A DNA stretch of 64,000 bases from an uncultured Solirubrobacterales bacterium. Its GTDB lineage: Bacteria > Actinomycetota > Thermoleophilia > Solirubrobacterales > 70-9. The notes beneath the pieces are model-generated. The model was not told where the DNA came from. It saw only the letters and a list, made by a program, of their open reading frames with translations, and did not search any database. The stretch lies in assembly GCA_963833375.1 (NCBI GenBank), contig CAWHXR010000001.1:408429-472428 (forward strand), written 5' to 3'. Numbering within the stretch: the first letter of the stretch is position 1; the number at the start of each line of letters is the position of its first letter. Of the stretch, positions 1,781 through 32,323 are shown piece after piece. The position numbers and the translations under genes are program-made.

Positions 1781-3031
1781 ATGGGCATACTCGACGACGC
1801 GATTCGCGAACACCTCGATCTGAAGCGCAAGCACGGCGCCCGCGACGCCGAGTTGCGCGAGATCGAGGACGAAGCCTTCGGTTCGACCGATCAGCCGGAC
1901 CCCTTCGCGGCCAACGAGCTCTTCAACGAGGTCTCCTCCGGCACGGACGCCGAGGCACCGCCCGCGGGGGCGCCGCCGCAGGAGATCGGCGGCCTCGGCG
2001 AGCCCGACGAGGGCGGCGAGGAGCCGACCCTGTTGGTCGAGCCCGAGGCGCTCCGCCCGCCCGAGCCGGCGCAGGAGGAGTCAGAGTCCGCCTCGCCGGC
2101 TGAGCCGGTCAGCCCACCGGAGGGCCTGGGTCAAATCCCGGGTCAGGTGGAGCTGCCGGGACAGGACGAGATTCCCGGTCAGGAGCGCCTGGAGGAGCCG
2201 GTCGAGGGCTATCAGCCCGCGCCGGAGCCCGAGCCTGCCCTCGAGACGCCCGTGGAGGAGGCCGGCGAACCCGAGCCGCCTGCGTCGTCCGAGTCGCTCG
2301 AGGAGCTGATCGCCGAGGAGGAGCCGTTCCCGGAGGACATCGCGGCCCCACCCGTGCCCGAGCAGGCGCCGCCGCCGGGGACCGAGGAGAGGGAGCCCGC
2401 CCCGCCTGAGCCAGAGGCCGAGGAGGTAGGAGAGGAGGAGCCGGAACCGCGGCCCGAGCCGGAGAGCCGCGTGCCCGAGCCACCCCCGCCGCCTCCCGAC
2501 ACCGCGGCGGAACCGCCGGGAAGGGCCCGCGGCAGGGTCGACGTCCCCACCCAGGAGCATCCGCCCCCCGGGCAGACCGGCGGCCTGCCGCCCGTTCCAG
2601 CGGGTGAGCCCGAGTCCTTCGAGCCGGCGAGCGAGCCGCTGCCCGTCGAAGAGGCTCTCCCGGCTGATGAGCCACTCGCCGAGGATCAGCCCGCCGACGG
2701 CTCACCCGGCCCGGCGCTCTACGACTTCGAGACGGACGAGGACGATCTGGCCGCGCCGAGCGACACGGCCGACGACGAGTTCGAGGCTCTCGGACCCGCG
2801 GAGGAGGAGGCGCCCTACCTCGAGGAGGAGGAGCCGCACACCGAGGAGCCCGCGTCCGGCAGCGATCAGCCCTTCGACGAGCCCAGCACGGCTGTCAGGC
2901 CCGCGCTCGAGGACGAGGAGCCGTACGAGGGCGGGACGCTCGATCCCGAGGAGTCATACGAGGAGGAAGAGGGAGAGGAGGGCCTCTGGTTCGAGAAGGG
3001 CCCGCCTCAGGACTTCGACTTCGACGAGTAG
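1781..3031 (+). CDS. highly acidic Pro/Glu/Ala-rich, probably disordered protein with short ordered termini
   Basis: 416-aa ORF. N-terminus MGILDDAIREHLDLKRKHGARDAELREIEDEAFG and C-terminus GLWFEKGPPQDFDFDE flank about 350 aa of E/P/A/D low-complexity sequence. No recognisable domain. Confidence 0.6.
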   Translation: MGILDDAIREHLDLKRKHGARDAELREIEDEAFGSTDQPDPFAANELFNEVSSGTDAEAPPAGAPPQEIGGLGEPDEGGEEPTLLVEPEALRPPEPAQEESESASPAEPVSPPEGLGQIPGQVELPGQDEIPGQERLEEPVEGYQPAPEPEPALETPVEEAGEPEPPASSESLEELIAEEEPFPEDIAAPPVPEQAPPPGTEEREPAPPEPEAEEVGEEEPEPRPEPESRVPEPPPPPPDTAAEPPGRARGRVDVPTQEHPPPGQTGGLPPVPAGEPESFEPASEPLPVEEALPADEPLAEDQPADGSPGPALYDFETDEDDLAAPSDTADDEFEALGPAEEEAPYLEEEEPHTEEPASGSDQPFDEPSTAVRPALEDEEPYEGGTLDPEESYEEEEGEEGLWFEKGPPQDFDFDE

Positions 3032-3056
3032 CCCCGCGCTGCTCGCCTTCGCGCTC

Positions 3057-4421
3057 CTAGACGTAGCCCCGCGTGCGGCTGGCCTCGACCACCCGCTCGA
3101 TCCCCACCAGATAAGCGGCCTCGCGGAGCGAGATGCGCTCCTCCTTCGAGCGAGCCGAGACGTCGCGGTACGCCCGGCGCATGATCCCGCCGAGCTTGTC
3201 GTTGACCTCGCGCTCGGACCAGCGGAAGTGCTGGAGGTTCTGCACCCACTCGAAGTAGGAGCAGACGACCCCACCCGCGTTCGCCATCACGTCGGGGATC
3301 ATGTGGACCCCCTTGTCATGCAGGATCTGGTCGGCGGCGGGCGTGGTGGGGCTGTTGGCGCCCTCGATGATCAGCTTGGTGTTGATCCGATCGGCGTTGC
3401 CCTCGTGGATCATGCCGCCGAGCGCCGCGGGGATCAGGACGTCGCATTCGATCGCGAGCAGGTCGTCTGGGCTGATCACCTCGGCGCCGGGAAACTCGGT
3501 GAGCTTGCCTCCCTCGCGTATGTGGGCCGCCAGGTCGTCGGCGTCGATGCCCTCGTCGCTGCGGATCGCGCCGGTGGCGTCGGACGTGCCGACCATCTTG
3601 GCGCCGAGCTGCTGGAGGATGCGGGCGGCCCAGGAGCCGACGTTGCCGTATCCCTGGACCACGAAGGTGCTTTCCGCGGGGGTGAGGCCGATCTGCGGGG
3701 CCGCCTCCCGGAACATGTAGATGCAGCCGCGGCCGGTGGCCTGCTCTCGACCGTATGAGCCCTCCAGCGCGATCGGCTTGCCGGTGCAGATCGCGGGCGT
3801 GTGGCCGTGGAGCTTGCCGTACTCGTCCATCATCCAGGCCATCACCTGGGCGTCCGTGTTGACGTCGGGGGCCGGGATGTCGCGGGTCGGGCCGAGGATC
3901 TTCTGGATCTTGTCCATGAACGAGCGCGTGATGGTCTGCAGCTCGGAGCGGTCCAGCTTCTCCGCCGGGCAGTTGACGCCGCCCTTGGCCCCGCCGAAGG
4001 GGATGTTCGCCACAGCGGTCTTCCAGGTCATCAGCGAGGCGAGGGCGCGCACCTCGTCGACGTCGACCTCGGGGTGGTACCGGATGCCCCCCTTGTAGGG
4101 GCCGCGGGCGCCGTTGTGCTGGATCCGATAGCCGGAGAAGGTGTGGACCTTCCCGTCCGAGAGCTTGACCGGGATCTGGACGGTGACCTCGCGGTACGGG
4201 GTCCAGAAGACCGTGCGGATGTCGTCGGGGAGCTCGAGGCGCTCCACCGCCCGGTCGAAGTAGAAGCGGACGATGTCGAGGTTGGAGACCTCGGCGCGCT
4301 GTGCGGGCTTGGACTCGCCGGCCGCTGCAACGCGCTCCCTTTCCTGGTCGACAGCGGTAGGCGATTTGTCCGTCGCCTTCCGTTCCCCGACTGATTCCGG
4401 TTGCTTGGCCCTCGTCGCCAC
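3057..4421 (-). CDS. gdh: NAD(P)-specific glutamate dehydrogenase (Glu/Leu/Phe/Val dehydrogenase family)
   Basis: Motifs GGIRYHP and the catalytic-Lys region TWKTAVANIPFGGAKGGV, plus Rossmann segment VVQGYGNVGS. The ORF extends to 4493, but GTG at 4421 is preceded by GGAGGG. Confidence 0.9.
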   Translation of the reverse strand: MATRAKQPESVGERKATDKSPTAVDQERERVAAAGESKPAQRAEVSNLDIVRFYFDRAVERLELPDDIRTVFWTPYREVTVQIPVKLSDGKVHTFSGYRIQHNGARGPYKGGIRYHPEVDVDEVRALASLMTWKTAVANIPFGGAKGGVNCPAEKLDRSELQTITRSFMDKIQKILGPTRDIPAPDVNTDAQVMAWMMDEYGKLHGHTPAICTGKPIALEGSYGREQATGRGCIYMFREAAPQIGLTPAESTFVVQGYGNVGSWAARILQQLGAKMVGTSDATGAIRSDEGIDADDLAAHIREGGKLTEFPGAEVISPDDLLAIECDVLIPAALGGMIHEGNADRINTKLIIEGANSPTTPAADQILHDKGVHMIPDVMANAGGVVCSYFEWVQNLQHFRWSEREVNDKLGGIMRRAYRDVSARSKEERISLREAAYLVGIERVVEASRTRGYV

Positions 4422-23138: not shown

Positions 23139-23783
23139 TCAGGAGAGGCGCTCGCGTGCTCTGCCCAGGTCGCCGACCAGCAGGGCCATCGCGTCGTCCC
23201 GGTCCGAGGGGTCAGCCCGGAGGATGGCGGAAGGATGAAGCGTCGGCATCGCGGTCCGGCCCAGCCGCGACTCCAGGAACTCGCCGTGGTCCTTCATCAC
23301 GCGGGCCTTCGAGCCGATCACGGCCTTCACAGCCGTCGCGCCGAGGCAGACCATCACCTCCGGATCGACGAGGGCGAGCTCGGCCTCGAGCCAGGGCGCG
23401 CATGCCGTGATCTCCTCTGCGCGCGGGGCCTGGTGGATGCGCCGCTTGCCCTTCGGCTTCCACTTGAAGTGCTTGACGACGTTGGTGACGTAGGCGTCGC
23501 CTCGCTCGATGCCGGCCTCCTCCAGCGCCTTGTCCAGGATCCGCCCGGCGGGCCCGACGAACGGATGGCCCTCGATGTCCTCGCGGTCGCCGGGCTGCTC
23601 GCCGATCAGCATCAGCCTGGCCCGCTTGAGGCCCTCCCCGAAGACGGTCTGGGTCCCGGTCTTCCAGAGCGGGCAGGCCCGGCAGCCCGCGGCGGCCTCG
23701 CGAAGGGACTCGAGTGTGGGGCTCTCGGGGATCAGCGCCTCGGCGCCGCTGGTCTCTCCGTCGGTGAGGGGAAGCTGGCTCAC
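23139..23783 (-). CDS. udgX: family-4-like uracil-DNA glycosylase of the UdgX type
   Basis: CRACPLW Fe-S region, motif A LIGEQPGDRED, FVGPAG, and the UdgX-specific insertion VKHFKWKPKGKRRIHQAP containing the KRRIH loop. C-terminal HPS motif. Confidence 0.85.
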   Translation of the reverse strand: MSQLPLTDGETSGAEALIPESPTLESLREAAAGCRACPLWKTGTQTVFGEGLKRARLMLIGEQPGDREDIEGHPFVGPAGRILDKALEEAGIERGDAYVTNVVKHFKWKPKGKRRIHQAPRAEEITACAPWLEAELALVDPEVMVCLGATAVKAVIGSKARVMKDHGEFLESRLGRTAMPTLHPSAILRADPSDRDDAMALLVGDLGRARERLS

Positions 23784-23834: not shown

Positions 23835-23848
23835 CGAACATCTGTTCG
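23835..23848. promoter_or_regulatory. LexA operator (SOS box, GAAC-N4-GTTC type)
   Basis: CGAACATCTGTTCG is a perfect palindrome. With its flanks, GCGAACatctGTTCGA matches TCGAAC-N4-GTTCGA at 11 of 12 positions. It lies in the 65-nt divergent region between udgX and the radical SAM gene and ends 1 nt before that gene's ATG. Confidence 0.7.
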
Positions 23849-25912
23849 ATGCGCTGGGACGCACAGAGGGTGGAGAGAGAGAAGGGAAGGAGCCTGCCCG
23901 GCCTGTCGGTCGAGCGGGTCCGCACCTTCGACGCGCCGGAGGCCCTCGGGATCAACTTCCACGAGGTCAGGGCCAAGTCGGCGCTCAACAAGGTTCCCGG
24001 CAACTACCTCCCGTTCAAGTGGACGGTCAACGCTTTCAGAGGGTGTGCCCATGCATGCACCTACTGCCTGGGGGGCGAGACCCCGATCATGCTCGCGGAC
24101 GGACGCGTCAGGCCCATCTCCGATCTGAAGGTGGGAGACCGCATATATGGCACTACGAAGGGCCCGACCTACCGCCACTACGCCATCACCGAGGTGCTTG
24201 CCCACTGGGAGACGTTCACGGAGGCTTACCGCCTCACGCTCGAGGACGGGACTGAGCTGATCGCCAGTGACGATCACCGCTTCCTGAGCCGGCGGGGGAA
24301 TTGGAAGCACGTCATCGGAGCCCAGTGTGGCCCGCTGCAGCGCCCATATCTGACGCTCAACGACGAGCTGATGGGCGTCGGGCAGTTCGCCCATGGTCCG
24401 GATACCGATTCCCCTATGTATCGAAGGGGGTATCTCTGCGGATTGATTCGAGGCGACGGAAATCTCCGCATCTACGAGGACAGGCGGCCCCACCGCACGG
24501 GCCAAAAGCTCCACCGATTCCGGCTCGCGCTCGCCGACTTCGAGGCTTTGCGCAGGGCACAGGAGTACCTCCGCGACTTCGACGTGGAAGCGGGCGAATA
24601 CGCCTTCTCGGCCGCCTCGGGCAACCGACGCGAGATCCGCGCGATCCGAAATCAGACGAGGGCGGGTGTCGAGACGATCCGTGAGGCGATCGCATGGCCG
24701 TGCGGATATTCGGAGCTATGGGCCAAGGGGTTCCTCGCCGGGATCTTCGACGCAGAGGGCTGTTACGCGCAGGGGGTATTCCGAATCGCCAACTGCGACC
24801 AGCAGATCATCGACTGGACCGCGTGGTCCCTCCGCCTGCTCGATTTCGATCATGCAATCGAGCGGAGCGGTCGACCCAACGGGATGACAAACGTCCGAAT
24901 CCGGGGCGGTCTCCGAGAGGTGCTGCGCTTCTTCCACCTCACCGAGCCTGCGATCACGCGGAAGCGATCGATCGCGGGCACCGCATTGAAGTCCGACTCG
25001 AAGCTCCGTGTTGCCTCGATCGAGCCGCTCGGTGAGCGCCAGCTCTTCGACATCACGACCGGAAGCGGTGACTTCATCGCCAACGGTGTGGTCAGCCACA
25101 ACTGCTTCGCCCGCAACACCCACACCTACCTCGACCTCGACGCCGGCCGCGATTTCGAGCGCGAGATCGTCGTCAAGGTCAACGTGCCCGAGCTGCTCCG
25201 GGCGGAGCTGGGCAGGCCGAGCTGGAAGCGCGAGCTGGTCGCCTTCGGGACGAACACCGATCCGTACCAGTGGGCCGAGGGCCGCTACGAGCTCATGCCG
25301 CCGATGCTCGAGGCGCTCCGGGATGCGGAGACGCCGGTCTCCGTCCTGACCAAGTCGTCGCTCGTCCTCCGCGATCTCGATCTCTTTCTGGAGCTGGCGC
25401 AGGTCGCCGACGTCAGCGCCAACTTCTCGGTGCCGACCCTGGACGAGAAGGTCTGGCGCGAGACCGAGCCGCACACCCCGCACCCGCGCAAGCGGCTGGA
25501 GGCGGTGGCGGCCTTCAACGAGGCGGGGATCCCGTCCGGGGTGCTGGTGGCCCCCCTGATGCCCGGGATCAACGACGCCCCGGAGCTGGTCGAGGAGATC
25601 GTCTCGATCGCCGAGGGTGCGGGGGCGACCTTCGTCAACGGCATCGCGCTCCACCTGAGGCCCGGGGTGAAGGAGGTCTTCATGTCCTGGCTCTCGGCCG
25701 CGCGGCCGGACCTGGTGCCGCGCTACGAGGAGCTCTACCAGGATCGCGCCTACGCCCCCAACGCGGAGCGCAAGCGGATCGGGAGCCTGGTCCGGGCACC
25801 GAACCGCTCGCGGGATCCGCGCTACAGCCGCCGCGACGAGCTCGAGAGGCGGCGGCGCCGGCGCGCGAGCGAGGCCCGGGAGCCCGGGGCCGCGCAGACG
25901 AGGCTCTTCTAG
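23849..25912 (+). CDS. Rv2578c/SplB-like radical SAM protein (DNA repair photolyase-like), intein-containing precursor
   Basis: N-extein MRWDAQ...LPFKWTVNAFRGCAHACTY, a 346-aa intein, then C-extein CFARNTHTYLDLD... Joining the exteins restores CAHACTYC (CX3CX2C). The extein is about 340 aa. Confidence 0.85.
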   Translation: MRWDAQRVEREKGRSLPGLSVERVRTFDAPEALGINFHEVRAKSALNKVPGNYLPFKWTVNAFRGCAHACTYCLGGETPIMLADGRVRPISDLKVGDRIYGTTKGPTYRHYAITEVLAHWETFTEAYRLTLEDGTELIASDDHRFLSRRGNWKHVIGAQCGPLQRPYLTLNDELMGVGQFAHGPDTDSPMYRRGYLCGLIRGDGNLRIYEDRRPHRTGQKLHRFRLALADFEALRRAQEYLRDFDVEAGEYAFSAASGNRREIRAIRNQTRAGVETIREAIAWPCGYSELWAKGFLAGIFDAEGCYAQGVFRIANCDQQIIDWTAWSLRLLDFDHAIERSGRPNGMTNVRIRGGLREVLRFFHLTEPAITRKRSIAGTALKSDSKLRVASIEPLGERQLFDITTGSGDFIANGVVSHNCFARNTHTYLDLDAGRDFEREIVVKVNVPELLRAELGRPSWKRELVAFGTNTDPYQWAEGRYELMPPMLEALRDAETPVSVLTKSSLVLRDLDLFLELAQVADVSANFSVPTLDEKVWRETEPHTPHPRKRLEAVAAFNEAGIPSGVLVAPLMPGINDAPELVEEIVSIAEGAGATFVNGIALHLRPGVKEVFMSWLSAARPDLVPRYEELYQDRAYAPNAERKRIGSLVRAPNRSRDPRYSRRDELERRRRRRASEAREPGAAQTRLF
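24065..25102 (+). mobile_element. intein with LAGLIDADG homing-endonuclease domain
   Basis: Begins CLGGETPIMLADG (block A). Block B is ASDDHRF. Two dodecapeptide motifs, YLCGLIRGDGN and FLAGIFDAEGC. Block F/G is FDITTGSGDFIANGVVSHN, followed by a +1 Cys. Confidence 0.85.
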
Positions 25913-25983: not shown

Positions 25984-26325
25984 ATGCCACCGAGAGGCGT
26001 GAGGAAGGGCACGAAGTGGGCCCGGATGTACGAGCACGTCAAGGAGAGCGAGAGGCGCGAGGGCCGCCCGAAGAGCAAGGCGGAGGAGATCGCGGCCCGC
26101 ACCGTGAACAAGGAGCGGGCCAGGGCGGGCGAGTCCGACGAGGCCTCGAGCTCCTCGCTGCGGGACATCTCGTCGTTCCGTCGCGGCGGACTGCGCTCCG
26201 GCCGCGGCGCGGGCGGGCGAACGTACGCGCAGCTCTACGAGGAGGCCAAGGACCTTGGCATCAAGGGCCGCTCGAAGATGAACAAGCGCCAGCTCGTCGG
26301 AGCCGTGGAGGGGAGGAAGCGCTGA
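25984..26325 (+). CDS. small basic protein with C-terminal Rho_N/SAP-like helix-hairpin domain
   Basis: AAGGAGG lies 5 nt before the ATG. The C-terminus TYAQLYEEAKDLGIKGRSKMNKRQLVGAV resembles the Rho termination factor N-terminal (SAP-like) motif. Confidence 0.65.
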   Translation: MPPRGVRKGTKWARMYEHVKESERREGRPKSKAEEIAARTVNKERARAGESDEASSSSLRDISSFRRGGLRSGRGAGGRTYAQLYEEAKDLGIKGRSKMNKRQLVGAVEGRKR

Positions 26326-26414: not shown

Positions 26415-27089
26415 TCAGCCCTCGATGCCGGTGGCGTCGTGGGGCGCCCCGACAGGCTTGGACTGCGAAGAGCCCCGCTGGCGGAGGAAGGCGGTGATGG
26501 CCACGAACGAGCCGACCGCGAGGAACTCCGACTGCCAGTTCTGCAGCGTCGCCTCCCAGAAGTCCGCCGATCCGACATAGCCGAGCCAGGACACCACCTT
26601 CTCGTGGTGGTCGACCTGCACCGCGTTGTACTTCGTCCAGCCTGTGACCGATTGAGCGAACCAGGAGCCGAAGAAGATGATCGACATCACGATCAGCAAT
26701 GAGTTGGAGTAGACGAAGGTCTTGATGCCGCGAGGTTTCGCCCAGTCGGGCGAGTCCTCGTGGGCGTGCTCCCCCACCTTCTGCTCCTCGTCCGACTCGA
26801 GCCCCTCCTTGCCGGGCTCCTTCGACTCCGGGGATCCGCGCTCGATCAACCAGATCGTGGCGAGCATGAAGAGCATGAACTGCAGGTACTCCGACTGCCA
26901 GTTCTCCATCACCGCATTGCCGAAGTCCGAGGAGACGATGTAACGCGAGAAGGTCATGGTGGTCCCGTGATGGGCCATCGCATCCTCGTTGTGGAGGATG
27001 TGTCCGGCGATCGCCTGGCCGACCAGCGCCGCGAGGAAGATCACCAGGAAGAAGAGGGAGAGGGAGTGATCGCGGATGAAGCGGCGCAT
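26415..27089 (-). CDS. DUF6766-like membrane protein with internal duplication
   Basis: Starts at MRRFIRDHSLSLFFLVIFLAALVGQ (ATG 27089) inside the longer ORF. Two repeats each end NWQSE(Y/F)L...RGS(P/S)(E/Q)SK. Family assignment is from memory of the pattern. Confidence 0.6.
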   Translation of the reverse strand: MRRFIRDHSLSLFFLVIFLAALVGQAIAGHILHNEDAMAHHGTTMTFSRYIVSSDFGNAVMENWQSEYLQFMLFMLATIWLIERGSPESKEPGKEGLESDEEQKVGEHAHEDSPDWAKPRGIKTFVYSNSLLIVMSIIFFGSWFAQSVTGWTKYNAVQVDHHEKVVSWLGYVGSADFWEATLQNWQSEFLAVGSFVAITAFLRQRGSSQSKPVGAPHDATGIEG

Positions 27090-27097
27090 CCGCGGCC

Positions 27098-27181
27098 TCA
27101 GTTGTGGGCCAGGCCGATCACGGAGTAGAAGACCAGCCCGGTCGCGATCACGGTGAGCCAGATGACGAGCATCGCCTTCAT
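27098..27181 (-). CDS. 27-aa hydrophobic peptide (not in the ORF track)
   Basis: ATG AAG GCG ATG CTC ... CAC AAC TGA encodes MKAMLVIWLTVIATGLVFYSVIGLAHN. Every third position is G or C, whereas the overlapping long-ORF frame has poor GC3. GAAGGA lies upstream. The stop is 8 nt before the DUF6766-like start. Confidence 0.5.
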   Translation of the reverse strand: MKAMLVIWLTVIATGLVFYSVIGLAHN

Positions 27182-27352
27182 GCGGAGATGTCCTTCCCCG
27201 ATGCGGCTTCGCTAATCGGATCCACGCTGCGAAGGCCTTCTTTCCCATCGGCTTGCTGGGCATTTCCCCCGATCGGATAGGAAATGAGGAGCTTCTTGAT
27301 CCAAAAAGTCGAGAACTCTGGTACCGTGGCCGACTTCTTATCAACGAAACCA

Positions 27353-28393
27353 ATGAAGAAAGGTCACAAAGCCTCTATGACTCAGGCAAAGAAGAAGCGC
27401 CAGCCGGGGCGCCTCCTCGCACGCCCTGGAATTGCCGCGGTCGCTCTCGGAGCGGTCCTCGGCATCGCCGCGTGCGGCTCGAGCGGGAGCTCCCTCAACT
27501 TGGTGGCGTACTCGACTCCACAGCAGGTCTACGAGCAGAGCCTCGAGCCCGGGTTCAAGAACACATCGGACGGCAAGAACGTCGACTTCTCCAACTCCTT
27601 TGGAGCGTCGGGCGATCAGAGCCGCGCCGTCGAGTCCGGTCAGCCGGCCGACGTCGTCGAGTTCTCGCTCGAGCCCGACATGCAGCGTCTGGTCGACGCC
27701 GGCATCGTCTCCTCGGACTGGAACCAGAACCAGTACAAGGGCATCGTCACCGACTCGGTCGTGACTCTGATGGTCCGGCCGGGCAACCCGAAGCACATCA
27801 CCAGCTTCGACGACCTCGCCCGGTCCGACGTGGAGGTGATCGATCCGAACCCGGCCACCTCCGGCGGAGCCCGCTGGAACATCATGGCCATCTACGGGTC
27901 GCAGATCGCGGAGGGCAAGTCCCCCGCTCAGGCCCAGGCCTTCGTCAAGCAGGTCCTGGCCAACACCTCCGTTCAGGATTCGAGCGCCCGTGACTCGCTG
28001 AATACGTTCTCCAGCGGCAAGGGCGACGTGCTGGTCGGATACGAGAACGATGCAATCCAGGCGAAGAAGGACGGCGTCGAGCTCGAGTACGTCACACCGT
28101 CCAGCACGATCCTGATCGAGAACCCGATCGCCGTCACCAAGGACGCACCGGCGGAGGCCCAGAAGTTCGTGAGCTTCCTGTACACGGACCAGGGCCAGCA
28201 GGACTTCGCCGACGCGGGCTACCGCCCAGTCGTCAAATCCGTCGCCGACAAGAACGCGAGCAAGTTCCCGGTTCCGGCGGGTCTGTTCACGATCGACAAG
28301 TTCGGTGGGTGGAGCAAGGTCGCCGATCCGTTCTTCGGCGACAACGGCTGGGTGATCCAGGCCGAGAAGGACCTCGGGAACCCGACGAGCTAG
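27353..28393 (+). CDS. cysP: sulfate/thiosulfate ABC transporter substrate-binding lipoprotein
   Basis: Lipobox LGIAAC. Sulfate-binding family segments SFGASGDQSRAV and PNPATSGGARWN. Candidate starts are ATG 27353 and ATG 27380. Confidence 0.85.
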   Translation: MKKGHKASMTQAKKKRQPGRLLARPGIAAVALGAVLGIAACGSSGSSLNLVAYSTPQQVYEQSLEPGFKNTSDGKNVDFSNSFGASGDQSRAVESGQPADVVEFSLEPDMQRLVDAGIVSSDWNQNQYKGIVTDSVVTLMVRPGNPKHITSFDDLARSDVEVIDPNPATSGGARWNIMAIYGSQIAEGKSPAQAQAFVKQVLANTSVQDSSARDSLNTFSSGKGDVLVGYENDAIQAKKDGVELEYVTPSSTILIENPIAVTKDAPAEAQKFVSFLYTDQGQQDFADAGYRPVVKSVADKNASKFPVPAGLFTIDKFGGWSKVADPFFGDNGWVIQAEKDLGNPTS

Positions 28394-31230: not shown

Positions 31231-31652
31231 TCACGGACCGGCGGCGGGCAGCTCACCGCCGACGAGGTCGCCGAGGGTCGTGTCCTCCATCACGGCGCGG
31301 AGATTGGCGCGCAGCGCGATCCAGACCTTCTGGAGCGGCACGGCCTCGCCCTTGTACTCGAGAGCTCTCGGGGCCCTGGCCGCGGACGCTCGCGAGCGGG
31401 TCCCTCGACGGCACGGACGATGTCGGCGAGGCTGACCTCATCGGCCGGCTTGGCGAGCCAGTAGCCGCCCTGTGCGCCCCGGCGGCTGGCGACGATGCCA
31501 GTGTGCTTGAGCTCGCCGAGGATGTTCTCCAGGAACTTGAGCGGGATGTCCTGGGCGTCCGCGATCGCCTCGCCTTTGATCGGATCGTCGCCGGCCGCGG
31601 CGAGCTCGATCGCCGCCCGGACGGCGTAGTCCACCTTGGCCGAGATCCTCAT
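31231..31652 (-). pseudogene. Rrf2-family transcriptional regulator, reading frame broken twice
   Basis: An intact wHTH N-terminus (MRISAKVDYAVRAAIEL...GGYWLAKP...IVRAVEG) is followed by the family-conserved PLASVRGQGPE, which lies in a second frame (seen in ORF 31253-31441). EYKGEAVPLQKVWIALRANLRAVMEDTTLGDLV lies in the third frame and ends at TGA 31231. Span length is 422 nt, which is 3n+2. Confidence 0.65.
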
Positions 31653-31774: not shown

Positions 31775-31914
31775 CTTCTCCGACTTCTCGGCTTCAGGCG
31801 TCAGCGGCGAACATAGGTTCGCTGGGCAGGACCCGGGCGAATCGAGGATCCGAACTGCAGGCGCCAATCCCACTCGTCAAGAAGAGGGGTCGCCCGCCTG
31901 ATCCGAGGACGAAC

Positions 31915-32323
31915 GTGTCCGGTGGAGGAGCGGCGCTGCAGGCGGCATGGGCTGACCGAGTTCGCTCAGTACAGCCGCGCCCAAGCCGCGGCTACCGCTG
32001 GTCGTGCAAGCGGTGCGTCGGTGAGGCCGTACCGCCGTCGGCAGCAGAAGCTGAAGCGCATGCTCGTCGAAGAGGCCGGTGGTCTTGCTGCGGTGTGTGG
32101 CTATGACCGCTGCATCAGTCAACCTGCGGTTTCCACCACGTCGATCCAGCCAGAAGTCATTCGCCATGATCGATGGCGATGGGTAAGTCGATCGCCAGCT
32201 TTCGTGAAGAGGCCAGAGAAGTGCGTCCTCGTCTGCGCCAATTGCCACGGCGAGATCGAGGCGGGACTGATTCAGAGCCCGCCCGCGGGAACCAAGTTCA
32301 GTGGCGGCCTGAAGGCCGCCTAG
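31915..32323 (+). pseudogene. small HNH endonuclease gene, multiply frameshifted with an in-frame stop
   Basis: Family-like segments are scattered over two frames: RRCRRHGLTEF (frame of ORF 31922), GYRWSCKRCVGEAV (frame of ORF 31915), QQKLKRMLVEEAGGLAAVCGYDRC, FHHVDPA...TGA(32167)...GKSIASFREEAR, then KCVLVCANCHGEIEAGL. GC content is visibly lower than in the flanks. Confidence 0.65.

Follow-up and report, generated by a model that had tools for sequence, protein, structure and literature searches.

Within the window analyzed here, i.e. the whole stretch of 64,000 nucleotides of Solirubrobacterales (Thermoleophilia) DNA, a radical SAM protein gene is interrupted by an insert that is very probably a class 1 mobile homing intein with a two-motif LAGLIDADG endonuclease, which has invaded the cluster motif of its host. 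The new observation is that the nearest relatives of this intein share one residue-exact site across radical SAM families, in cells as well as in phages. Inteins of this kind have already been catalogued and the intein itself is routine; its value lies in the test bed that it offers for gated splicing and in the lineage for which the cluster loop is a hot spot.

The precursor open reading frame (23849..25912, + strand, as are all features of the gene given below; 687 aa plus stop) translates as quoted in the preliminary description, and the 346-aa intein has the hallmarks claimed for it. The N-extein (aa 1-72; 23849..24064), which is colinear with intein-less orthologues, ends in RGC66AHAC70TY and contributes the first two cluster cysteines, C66 (24044-24046) and C70 (24056-24058; position −3). 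The intein (24065..25102; precursor residues 73-418; Cys1...Ser-His-Asn) begins with block A (CLGGETPIMLADG, 24065..24103), where Cys1, the nucleophile, is precursor residue 73 (nt 24065). In block B (IASDDHRFL, 24260..24286), the DDH reported earlier is at the right place, within an S68-x-x-H71 variant of TxxH that aligns with CSEEHLF of the gp41-1 intein. The homing endonuclease domain spans approximately intein residues 106-300 (24380..24964) and includes LAGLIDADG motif 1, GYLCGLIRGDG (24428-24460; acidic residue D131), and motif 2, GFLAGIFDAEG (24728-24760; acidic residue E231); it is followed by block F (QLFDITTGSGDFIANG, 25040-25087; D329) and block G (VVSHN, 25088-25102), with the penultimate His345 and the terminal Asn346 (precursor residue 418; nt 25100-25102). 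The C-extein (aa 419-687 plus stop; 25103..25912) opens with the +1 Cys (C419, 25103-25105), which together with C73 completes the cysteine pair of a class 1 intein, and ends in QTRLF, a QxxLF motif (25895-25909). Here, S68, H71, D131, E231, D329, H345 and N346 follow the intein numbering, and C66, C70, C73 and C419 that of the precursor. A tblastn search with the intein as the query found no second intein elsewhere in the window.

As proposed in the preliminary description, the intein lies between the second and third cysteines of the CX3CX2C motif of an Rv2578c/COG1533-type radical SAM protein, and its excision gives CAHACTYC. The extein obtained by removing the intein in silico is 341 aa long and reads CAHACTY/CFARNTH (the slash marks the junction, here and below). 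Because this product is colinear with intein-less orthologues, the +1 Cys corresponds to the third cysteine of the cluster motif; Cys1 and the +1 Cys are both encoded by TGC, so that at the DNA level the boundary of the insertion is ambiguous by one codon. The comparison of the joined exteins with intein-less homologues showed colinearity across the junction in protein, synteny and DNA. Among the best 120 intein-less homologues listed (80-92% identity, typically 341 aa, coverage mostly 100%), CxHACxxC is contiguous; intein-less orthologues (loci L081-L083) share the thiSG-hyp-UDG-rSAM synteny, and deletion of 24065-25102 leaves the DNA colinear with the intein-less loci.

The precursor matches the profile NF038136, 'intein-containing Rv2578c family radical SAM protein', with an E-value of 4e-203, and the insert alone does so with 9e-64, values well outside anything that chance would produce. 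The intein aligns with profile positions 76-334 and the C-extein with the profile from 335, i.e. the insertion points coincide (between 75 and 76 and between 334 and 335). The architecture and insertion site are the same, although the whole-protein score of 676.3 bits falls narrowly under the cutoff of 700 for this protein from Solirubrobacterales; among its homologues, P0069 and P0422 carry the name of the profile. NF038136 corresponds to the SplB (COG1533) inteins, that is, to the same host family and intein lineage, and 48 such inteins have been recorded in Actinobacteria, in a paper the main text of which mentions neither the radical SAM motif nor the insertion site (Novikova et al. 2016, PMC4760082). 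The earlier statement that intein-bearing members of this family had been annotated was, accordingly, accurate.

Other profile searches were split: TIGR01445 (intein N-terminal region; 26.2 bits) and Pfam LAGLIDADG_3 (24.1 bits) scored above their cutoffs of 24.5 and 22.5, respectively, whereas Pfam Intein_splicing (29.0 bits vs. 35.8) and TIGR01443 (14.5 bits vs. 15.6) remained below theirs. In structure comparisons, the AF2 model of the intein (pLDDT 93.4) was matched by Foldseek to PI-PfuI (5e-15), PI-SceI (2e-13) and TliVMA, indicating a HINT fold, and to I-DmoI chains (TMt 0.72-0.79, rmsd about 3.3 Å), indicating an I-DmoI-like pair of alpha-beta-beta-alpha-beta-beta-alpha folds. These best structural matches share the HINT plus double-LAGLIDADG architecture, although the sequence identity is only 10-17% and the intein analyzed here is shorter. 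I-DmoI uses an Asp/Glu catalytic pair, and the likely counterpart here is D131/E231. Together, the profiles and the model bear out the assignment to LAGLIDADG class 1 inteins.

With regard to the host protein, Pfam Radical_SAM (PF04055) scored 47.3 bits (cutoff 29.5), and the spliced protein has the CX3CX2C motif with an aromatic residue preceding the third Cys, as in radical SAM enzymes. The spliced protein scored 407.7 bits against NF038135, the Rv2578c family equivalog, under the cutoff of 430; judging from its sequence, the host is best described as Rv2578c-like/COG1533. The label 'SplB-like' given to it earlier holds at the superfamily level only, the true spore photoproduct lyase SplB (TIGR04070) being rejected with a score of 22 bits where 400 are required. 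For an intein-less orthologue, the AF2 model is of moderate quality (pLDDT 69.7, with a disordered, low-pLDDT cluster loop) and matches generic radical SAM enzymes, namely PFL-AE, Mmp10 and SPL (4k9r, TM 0.44, one of several such matches); for these reasons, the label is not sharpened further. No homologue of the spliced extein was found in the PDB by sequence search.

The residues that are expected to carry out splicing and cleavage are strongly conserved. Among the 120 intein-bearing homologues listed, all 118 with identifiable junctions retain Cys1, xHN and Cys+1, and their inteins measure 343-348 aa, with no length decay. Across 87 intein sequences, C1, H71, D329, H345 and N346 are invariant, as are D131 and E231 over a span of 54-98% identity; S68 and both LAGLIDADG motifs are conserved in at least 90%. 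From these residues, we infer that the intein splices itself out and cleaves DNA. The precursor would be inactive until spliced, and the claim that enzyme activity depends on splicing is, in that sense, plausible.

Several lines of evidence favor mobility. Occupied and empty alleles interleave on the extein tree, with 28 state changes among 239 leaves, a count that represents a biased frequency, given that the tree samples the best 120 plus the best 120 matches listed; polymorphism for intein presence is likewise seen in other hosts. In 92 pairs, exteins diverged by less than 10% contain inteins diverged by more than 35%, and the Spearman correlation between intein and extein divergence is only 0.44. 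The intein also differs from the C-extein in GC3 (0.81 vs. 0.96; endonuclease domain, 0.78), and dN/dS in the endonuclease domain is 0.09-0.43. When the window was compared with loci L001, L002 and L003, dS was 1.1-2.7 for the intein (one pair being saturated and not calculable) and about 0.7-1.0 for the extein; this contrast is suggestive but is not relied on because the values are near saturation and confounded by the high GC3 of the extein. An immobilized intein, with an inactive endonuclease, that is tolerated and persists because it still splices appears quite improbable. Immobilization is a common fate of inteins in the homing cycle, an imprecise deletion at this point in the cluster motif would destroy the host enzyme, and many Solirubrobacterales species representatives carry the intein by vertical descent. 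However, the maintenance of the LAGLIDADG motifs with their invariant acidic residues, the constant intein length, the dN/dS values below 1, the interleaving of occupied and empty alleles, and the occurrence of several divergent intein lineages within near-identical hosts all argue for an endonuclease that is still at work. An artefact, whether a chimeric assembly or the insertion of something other than an intein, e.g. an ORF of a mobile element fused to the gene, can be rejected with near certainty: the reading frame runs through the insert, the splice junctions are precise, and the same architecture was found in 80 genome loci, one of them in a cultured strain (Conexibacter stalactiti KCTC 39840), as well as in over 100 proteins from metagenomes.

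The distribution of the relatives of this mobile intein shows a tight association with one site. The nearest ones occupy the same Cx3Cx2/C position in PA0069, DUF5131, B12-binding, QueE and SPASM maturase hosts, and the hosts of related inteins altogether represent at least 8 radical SAM families from bacteria, a haloarchaeal MAG and phages (phage contigs). Visible N-junctions of the relatives conform to Cx3Cx2/C1 in 69 of 84 cases and, in a wider set, in 90 of 91; a +1 Cys is present at 75 of 77 and, in the wider set, 92 of 92 C-junctions. Among the relatives, P0274 has Ser1, and P0309 is inserted before the second Cys. No MoaA host was found among these relatives. Literature searches found no paper on inteins within the cluster motif of radical SAM enzymes, and none on one intein lineage at a residue-exact site across radical SAM families; a hit on a Campylobacter phage proved irrelevant. 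Inteins do cluster at conserved motifs in proteins that are not orthologous, for example in the clamp loader and MCM ATPase domains (Novikova et al. 2016, PMC4760082). As in those proteins, homologous or similar inteins recur here at one catalytic motif in different families. The classic clustering motif is the P-loop, whereas the motif in the present case is CX3CX2C, and the residue-exact site is kept across at least 8 families. The radical SAM CX3CX2C loop is, then, a residue-exact hot spot for one intein lineage across many families and phages, and the system is suited to studying jumps of homing endonucleases between paralogous targets as well as being a source of new Cys+1 inteins.

In the mechanism we propose, the intein entered the CX3CX2C [4Fe-4S] motif where the codon of Tyr72 meets that of the third cysteine. 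Following translation, Cys1 would carry out an N-S acyl shift, the resulting thioester would be attacked by the +1 Cys (which would later serve as the third ligand of the cluster), Asn346 would cyclize, and the exteins would be ligated into one continuous chain, the 341-aa enzyme with CAHACTYC. Once released, the intein would cut intein-less alleles site-specifically, and repair would copy the intein in. The putative target in empty alleles is CATGCRTGCnnnTAY/TGCTTCGC, with the form TGCGYNTAY/TGCTTCGC in L081 and L082. The position of the intein can be attributed to the motif being immutable and providing the obligatory +1 Cys, and the lineage has probably become specialized on the cluster-loop site over many radical SAM families. 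Ordinary homing to a site that is conserved accounts for the position, and the novelty that the preliminary description located in the mechanism is weakened.

The host gene itself appears to belong to a stress regulon. A LexA/Cheo-type SOS box (CGAACATCTGTTCG, 23835..23848, listed without strand; 0.08 expected per window) abuts the start codon, and the putative LexA operator CGAAC-N4-GTTCG is conserved in 75 of 80 related loci and in 3 of 3 intein-less loci, from which we infer that the host gene is stress-regulated. In M. tuberculosis, Rv2578c is bound by LexA and is RecA-dependent (PMC3381160). Together with the C-terminal QxxLF motif, the LexA box sharpens the hypothesis that members of the Rv2578c/PA0069 family work on DNA at the replisome or close to it.

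A further possibility, compatible with homing but unlikely on the present evidence, is that splicing is conditional. Cys-7, Cys-3, Cys1 and, via the HINT fold, Cys+1 would lie close together in the precursor, where a C70-C73 disulfide, a metal or an Fe-S cluster could keep the nucleophiles out of reach; maturation of the oxygen-labile radical SAM enzyme would then be confined to cells that are reducing or Fe-S-replete, and a role as a post-translational switch for a repair enzyme induced by the SOS response would explain why the intein is retained. The precursor does contain the C-x-x-C1 spacing (C70-T-Y-C73), which is present in 118 of 118 homologues with identifiable junctions, each of these close homologues having Cys1 and never Ser1, and the conserved LexA box is in keeping with such a role. 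To our knowledge, the only proven natural redox-trap intein is that of Pyrococcus abyssi MoaA, a radical SAM Fe-S enzyme, and its Cys-3/Cys1 geometry, with an N-extein Cys at −3 and Cys1 forming C-x-x-C, is matched here, as is the proposed logic. As summarized in two reviews (PMC3922620, PMC10663303; for the MoaA intein, after Callahan et al. 2011), a Cys-3/Cys1 disulfide was shown experimentally in this native trap, oxidation blocks splicing, the host enzyme is oxygen-labile, and the same trap exists in an engineered Ssp DnaE intein. On that account, the mechanism is less novel than had been claimed and, unlike in P. abyssi, where redox control was demonstrated according to these sources, such control is a possibility in the present case. 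Moreover, the C-x-x-C1 spacing is fixed, and Cys at −3 and +1 imposed, by the host motif, regulatory or not; the intein is dispensable, given the many intein-less orthologues (80-92% identity) at this locus; P0274 and P0309 show that precisely this geometry is not required; and an intact endonuclease together with discordant intein and extein histories fits a selfish element. Topilina et al. (2015) reportedly found that splicing of the M. tuberculosis SufB intein is sensitive to oxidative and nitrosative stress via catalytic cysteines; that intein is likewise actinobacterial and in an Fe-S-related host, but SufB is a cluster-assembly scaffold and its intein is not known to lie within a cluster-ligand motif.

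Slightly less likely still is a combined scenario in which a site-specialized intein lineage, cysteine-gated splicing in an SOS-induced, possibly clamp-tethered repair enzyme, and an endonuclease timed to recombinational repair all hold. Convergence of the cysteines at −7, −3, 1 and +1 in precursors implies that disulfide formation or Zn or Fe-S binding could gate splicing. If so, redox or Fe-S status would be coupled to the maturation of a DNA-repair radical SAM enzyme with a C-terminal QxxLF, and the endonuclease would be expressed exactly during the induction of recombinational repair. The mobile intein at the cluster motif, the reading preferred here, provides a natural test bed for asking whether maturation comes to depend on redox state or cluster supply when one cysteine is both an Fe-S ligand and a splicing nucleophile.

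Outside the intein, a divergently transcribed uracil-DNA glycosylase superfamily gene (23139..23783, − strand; Pfam UDG, 119 bits) is a conserved neighbor of the host gene, also in the intein-less loci L081-L083; an association of UDG with SplB-like proteins has been noted previously (PMC3765255).

The radical SAM gene (23849-25912, + strand) encodes a precursor in which the intein runs from Cys1 at residue 73 (nt 24065) to the terminal Asn at residue 418 (nt 25100-25102), a length of 346 aa; excision of the intein leaves a 341-aa protein with the junction ...RGCAHACTY/CFARNTHTYLD (here and below, a slash within a motif marks the junction). The third Cys of the cluster motif is supplied by the +1 Cys, whose sequence position is held by Cys1 in the precursor; because both of these residues are encoded by TGC, the DNA boundary of the intein is ambiguous by one codon. 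The translation contains block A (CLGGETPIMLADG), block B (IASDDHRFL, an S-x-x-H variant of TxxH), two LAGLIDADG motifs (GYLCGLIRGDG and GFLAGIFDAEG), block F (QLFDITTGSGDFIANG) and block G (VVSHN, followed by Cys). Thus, the open reading frame proposed in the preliminary description is genuine, the translation quoted there is exact, and every intein motif listed was found.

When the spliced extein was used as the query, the best 120 matches listed were intein-less homologues, typically 341 aa long and 79-92% identical, mostly from Solirubrobacterales and mostly covering the full query length; all except one (119 of 120) have a contiguous CxHACxxC. Two of these, traced to their contigs, share the gene order of the window (thiS/thiG, a 197-aa ORF, UDG and the radical SAM gene) and are therefore orthologous empty sites. 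Deletion of 24065-25102 from the DNA restores ...TGCACCTAC joined directly to TGCTTCGCC..., colinear with both loci. The joined exteins align with the intein-less homologues without a break in colinearity across the junction, so the intein call stands; together with the profile matches, this bears out the earlier placement of the intein immediately before the third cluster Cys.

The whole precursor matches the NCBIfam profile NF038136, 'intein-containing Rv2578c family radical SAM protein', with E = 4e-203 and 676 bits (cutoff 700). Within this profile, the insert by itself covers positions 76-334 and the C-extein starts at 335, which places the insertion at the point curated by NCBI. Among Pfam domains, Radical_SAM and LAGLIDADG_3 exceed the threshold and Intein_splicing is slightly under it. 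Taken as a whole, the profile comparison settles the proposed identity as a LAGLIDADG intein. The spliced protein scored 408 bits against NF038135 (Rv2578c family; cutoff 430), 254 bits against the PA0069 family profile and 22 bits against the spore photoproduct lyase model (cutoff 400); given the last value, the label 'SplB-like' is valid at the superfamily (COG1533) level but not in the sense of a true spore photoproduct lyase. AlphaFold2 modelled the insert confidently (pLDDT 93.4); the PDB folds closest to this model are those of PI-PfuI, TliVMA and PI-SceI, all inteins that carry an endonuclease, and its central domain superposes on I-DmoI (TMt 0.76-0.78). The element thus belongs to an already curated kind of intein.

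Relatives of the precursor are encoded by no fewer than 596 GTDB species representatives. An intein is present in every one of the best 80, which come mainly from Solirubrobacterales, Thermoleophilaceae and Conexibacter, and include a cultured strain, C. stalactiti KCTC 39840. Intein-bearing members had been annotated before, as the preliminary description states: 'SplB, COG1533, 48 inteins, Actinobacteria' appears among the top bacterial intein hosts in Novikova et al. 2016 (PMC4760082), the main text of which does not contain the word 'radical'. No discussion of the position inside the Fe-S motif was found in the literature that could be searched. The same type of intein-bearing gene was also seen in MAGs assigned to Gemmatimonadota, Acidobacteriota, Proteobacteria, Planctomycetota and Armatimonadota (locus L067, from Gemmatimonadaceae, and proteins P0408, P0457, P0461 and P0486) and in a Halobacteriales archaeon MAG (P0464), reflecting either horizontal transfer or binning error.

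Junctions were parsed in 118 of the 120 full-length intein-bearing homologues listed, the other two being truncated sequences; all 118 keep Cx3Cx2/C1, xHN and Cys+1, with intein lengths of 343-348 aa. Across 87 sequences, with identity down to 54%, C1, H71, D131, E231, D329, H345 and N346 are invariant. Each of the two LAGLIDADG motifs shows conservation of 90% or more. Nei-Gojobori dN/dS values were 0.09-0.43 for the endonuclease domain and 0.06-0.31 for the HINT parts, with dS close to saturation. In an extein tree of 239 leaves, a biased sample drawn from the best rows of two homologue searches, intein-bearing and intein-less alleles interleave, with at least 28 state changes. Divergence of intein and extein is poorly coupled (Spearman 0.44), and 92 pairs combine extein divergence below 10% with intein divergence above 35%. 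GC3 is 0.81 in the intein and 0.78 in its endonuclease domain, compared to 0.96 in the C-extein (25103-25912) and 0.80-0.94 in neighbouring genes, all except one of which are at 0.87 or higher; the exception is a DUF6766 membrane gene (26415-27353, - strand; 0.80). Taken together, the interleaved alleles, poorly coupled divergences, discordant pairs and lower GC3 are consistent with an element that is still passing through the homing cycle, several lineages of which circulate among close host relatives.

A search with the intein only against 1.84 billion representative proteins returned 2252 matches, 263 of them at <1e-30. Among the best 150, the N-junction was Cx3Cx2/C1 in 69 of the 84 visible cases and the +1 residue was Cys at 75 of 77 C-junctions; most exceptions look like fragments or parsing failures. 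A profile search of a 5.8-billion-protein set gave 90 of 91 and 92 of 92, respectively. Besides Rv2578c-type proteins, the hosts include the PA0069 family, ParB_N-DUF5131 / 'radical SAM mobile pair A', B12-binding radical SAMs, an NrdG-like small enzyme and unclassified radical SAMs (examples at Cx3Cx2/C in other families are proteins P0268, P0277, P0309, P0317, P0326 and P0380 and viral loci L084-L111). Of the 29 full-length relatives on viral contigs of IMG/VR, 23 occupy the Cx3Cx2/C position and 2 more a DUF5131-type Cx6Cx2/C; among their hosts are bona fide QueE (243 bits against a cutoff of 206), a CXXX-repeat peptide maturase (373 bits against a cutoff of 350) and enzymes of the SPASM/twitch type. 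In the intein tree, Rv2578c/PA0069-hosted inteins, that of the window included, form one clade, with a sister clade of mixed host families; presence/absence polymorphism was observed in two other hosts at 93-98% extein identity. Variants were also encountered: an intein before the second motif Cys (P0309, residues about 199-562, CPYR/CNFC), Ser1 in place of Cys1 (P0274, about 215-560), and two inteins in one radical SAM/SPASM host protein, the second in a C-terminal Cys-rich SPASM-like region (P0347; also L100 and L103, where the host ORFs lie around 3001-4047).

Of the by-products of the analysis, this residue-exact recurrence in many radical SAM families and in phages is the most interesting; its simplest reading is that a single intein lineage became specialised for the cluster loop of radical SAM enzymes. 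On this reading, the loop is an immutable target that also supplies the +1 Cys, and the lineage has moved from one paralogous family to another, phages being the likely carriers. The recurrence thus supports selfish homing as the reason for the exact position and lessens the need for a regulatory explanation, in which redox state or the Fe-S cluster would gate splicing on top of homing. Such gating appears unlikely here, even though the idea has a close precedent. MoaA is a radical SAM enzyme. In its Pyrococcus abyssi intein, a native Cys-3/Cys1 disulfide stops splicing under oxidising conditions (PMC3922620, PMC10663303), and the precursor of the window has the same C-x-x-C1 spacing (C70-T-Y-C73), as dictated by the host cluster motif. 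Ordinary class-1 splicing combined with LAGLIDADG homing at a conserved site that provides the Cys is the best-supported mechanism and very probably applies, splicing and cleavage being predicted from conserved residues.

The radical SAM gene has a perfect LexA/Cheo SOS box, CGAACATCTGTTCG (23835-23848), directly before its ATG, compared to 0.08 sites expected per window. Of 80 related loci, 75 have an equivalent box upstream of the gene, mostly at -14/-16 relative to its start; each of the three intein-less loci has one too. The position of the box suggests a leaderless or very short-leader transcript, predicted to be SOS-regulated. The divergent neighbour in the window is a UDG. The protein ends, after a variable Arg-rich linker, in QTRLF (25895-25909), and a Q-x-x-L-F C-terminus is present in 234 of 240 close homologues; it resembles the beta-clamp-binding consensus and is a putative beta-sliding-clamp-binding motif. 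Distant Rv2578c/PA0069 family members end in EQISLL, EQLTLL, GQMELF or QQLTLRL. No literature on this C-terminus was found. In M. tuberculosis, the gene Rv2578c is bound by LexA and is RecA-dependent (PMC3381160), and Aravind and colleagues associated SplB-like radical SAMs with SOS and uracil-DNA glycosylases (PMC3765255).

A second perfect SOS box, CGAACATAGGTTCG (31808-31821), lies between an Rrf2-family regulator gene (31290-31652, - strand) and a 133-aa ORF (31922-32323, + strand) with a possibly HNH-like CANCHGEIE stretch, for which a Pfam search gave no match. Just 3' of the radical SAM gene lies a small ORF (25984-26325, + strand; 113 aa) whose highly charged product carries a C-terminal Rho_N domain (25.5 bits).
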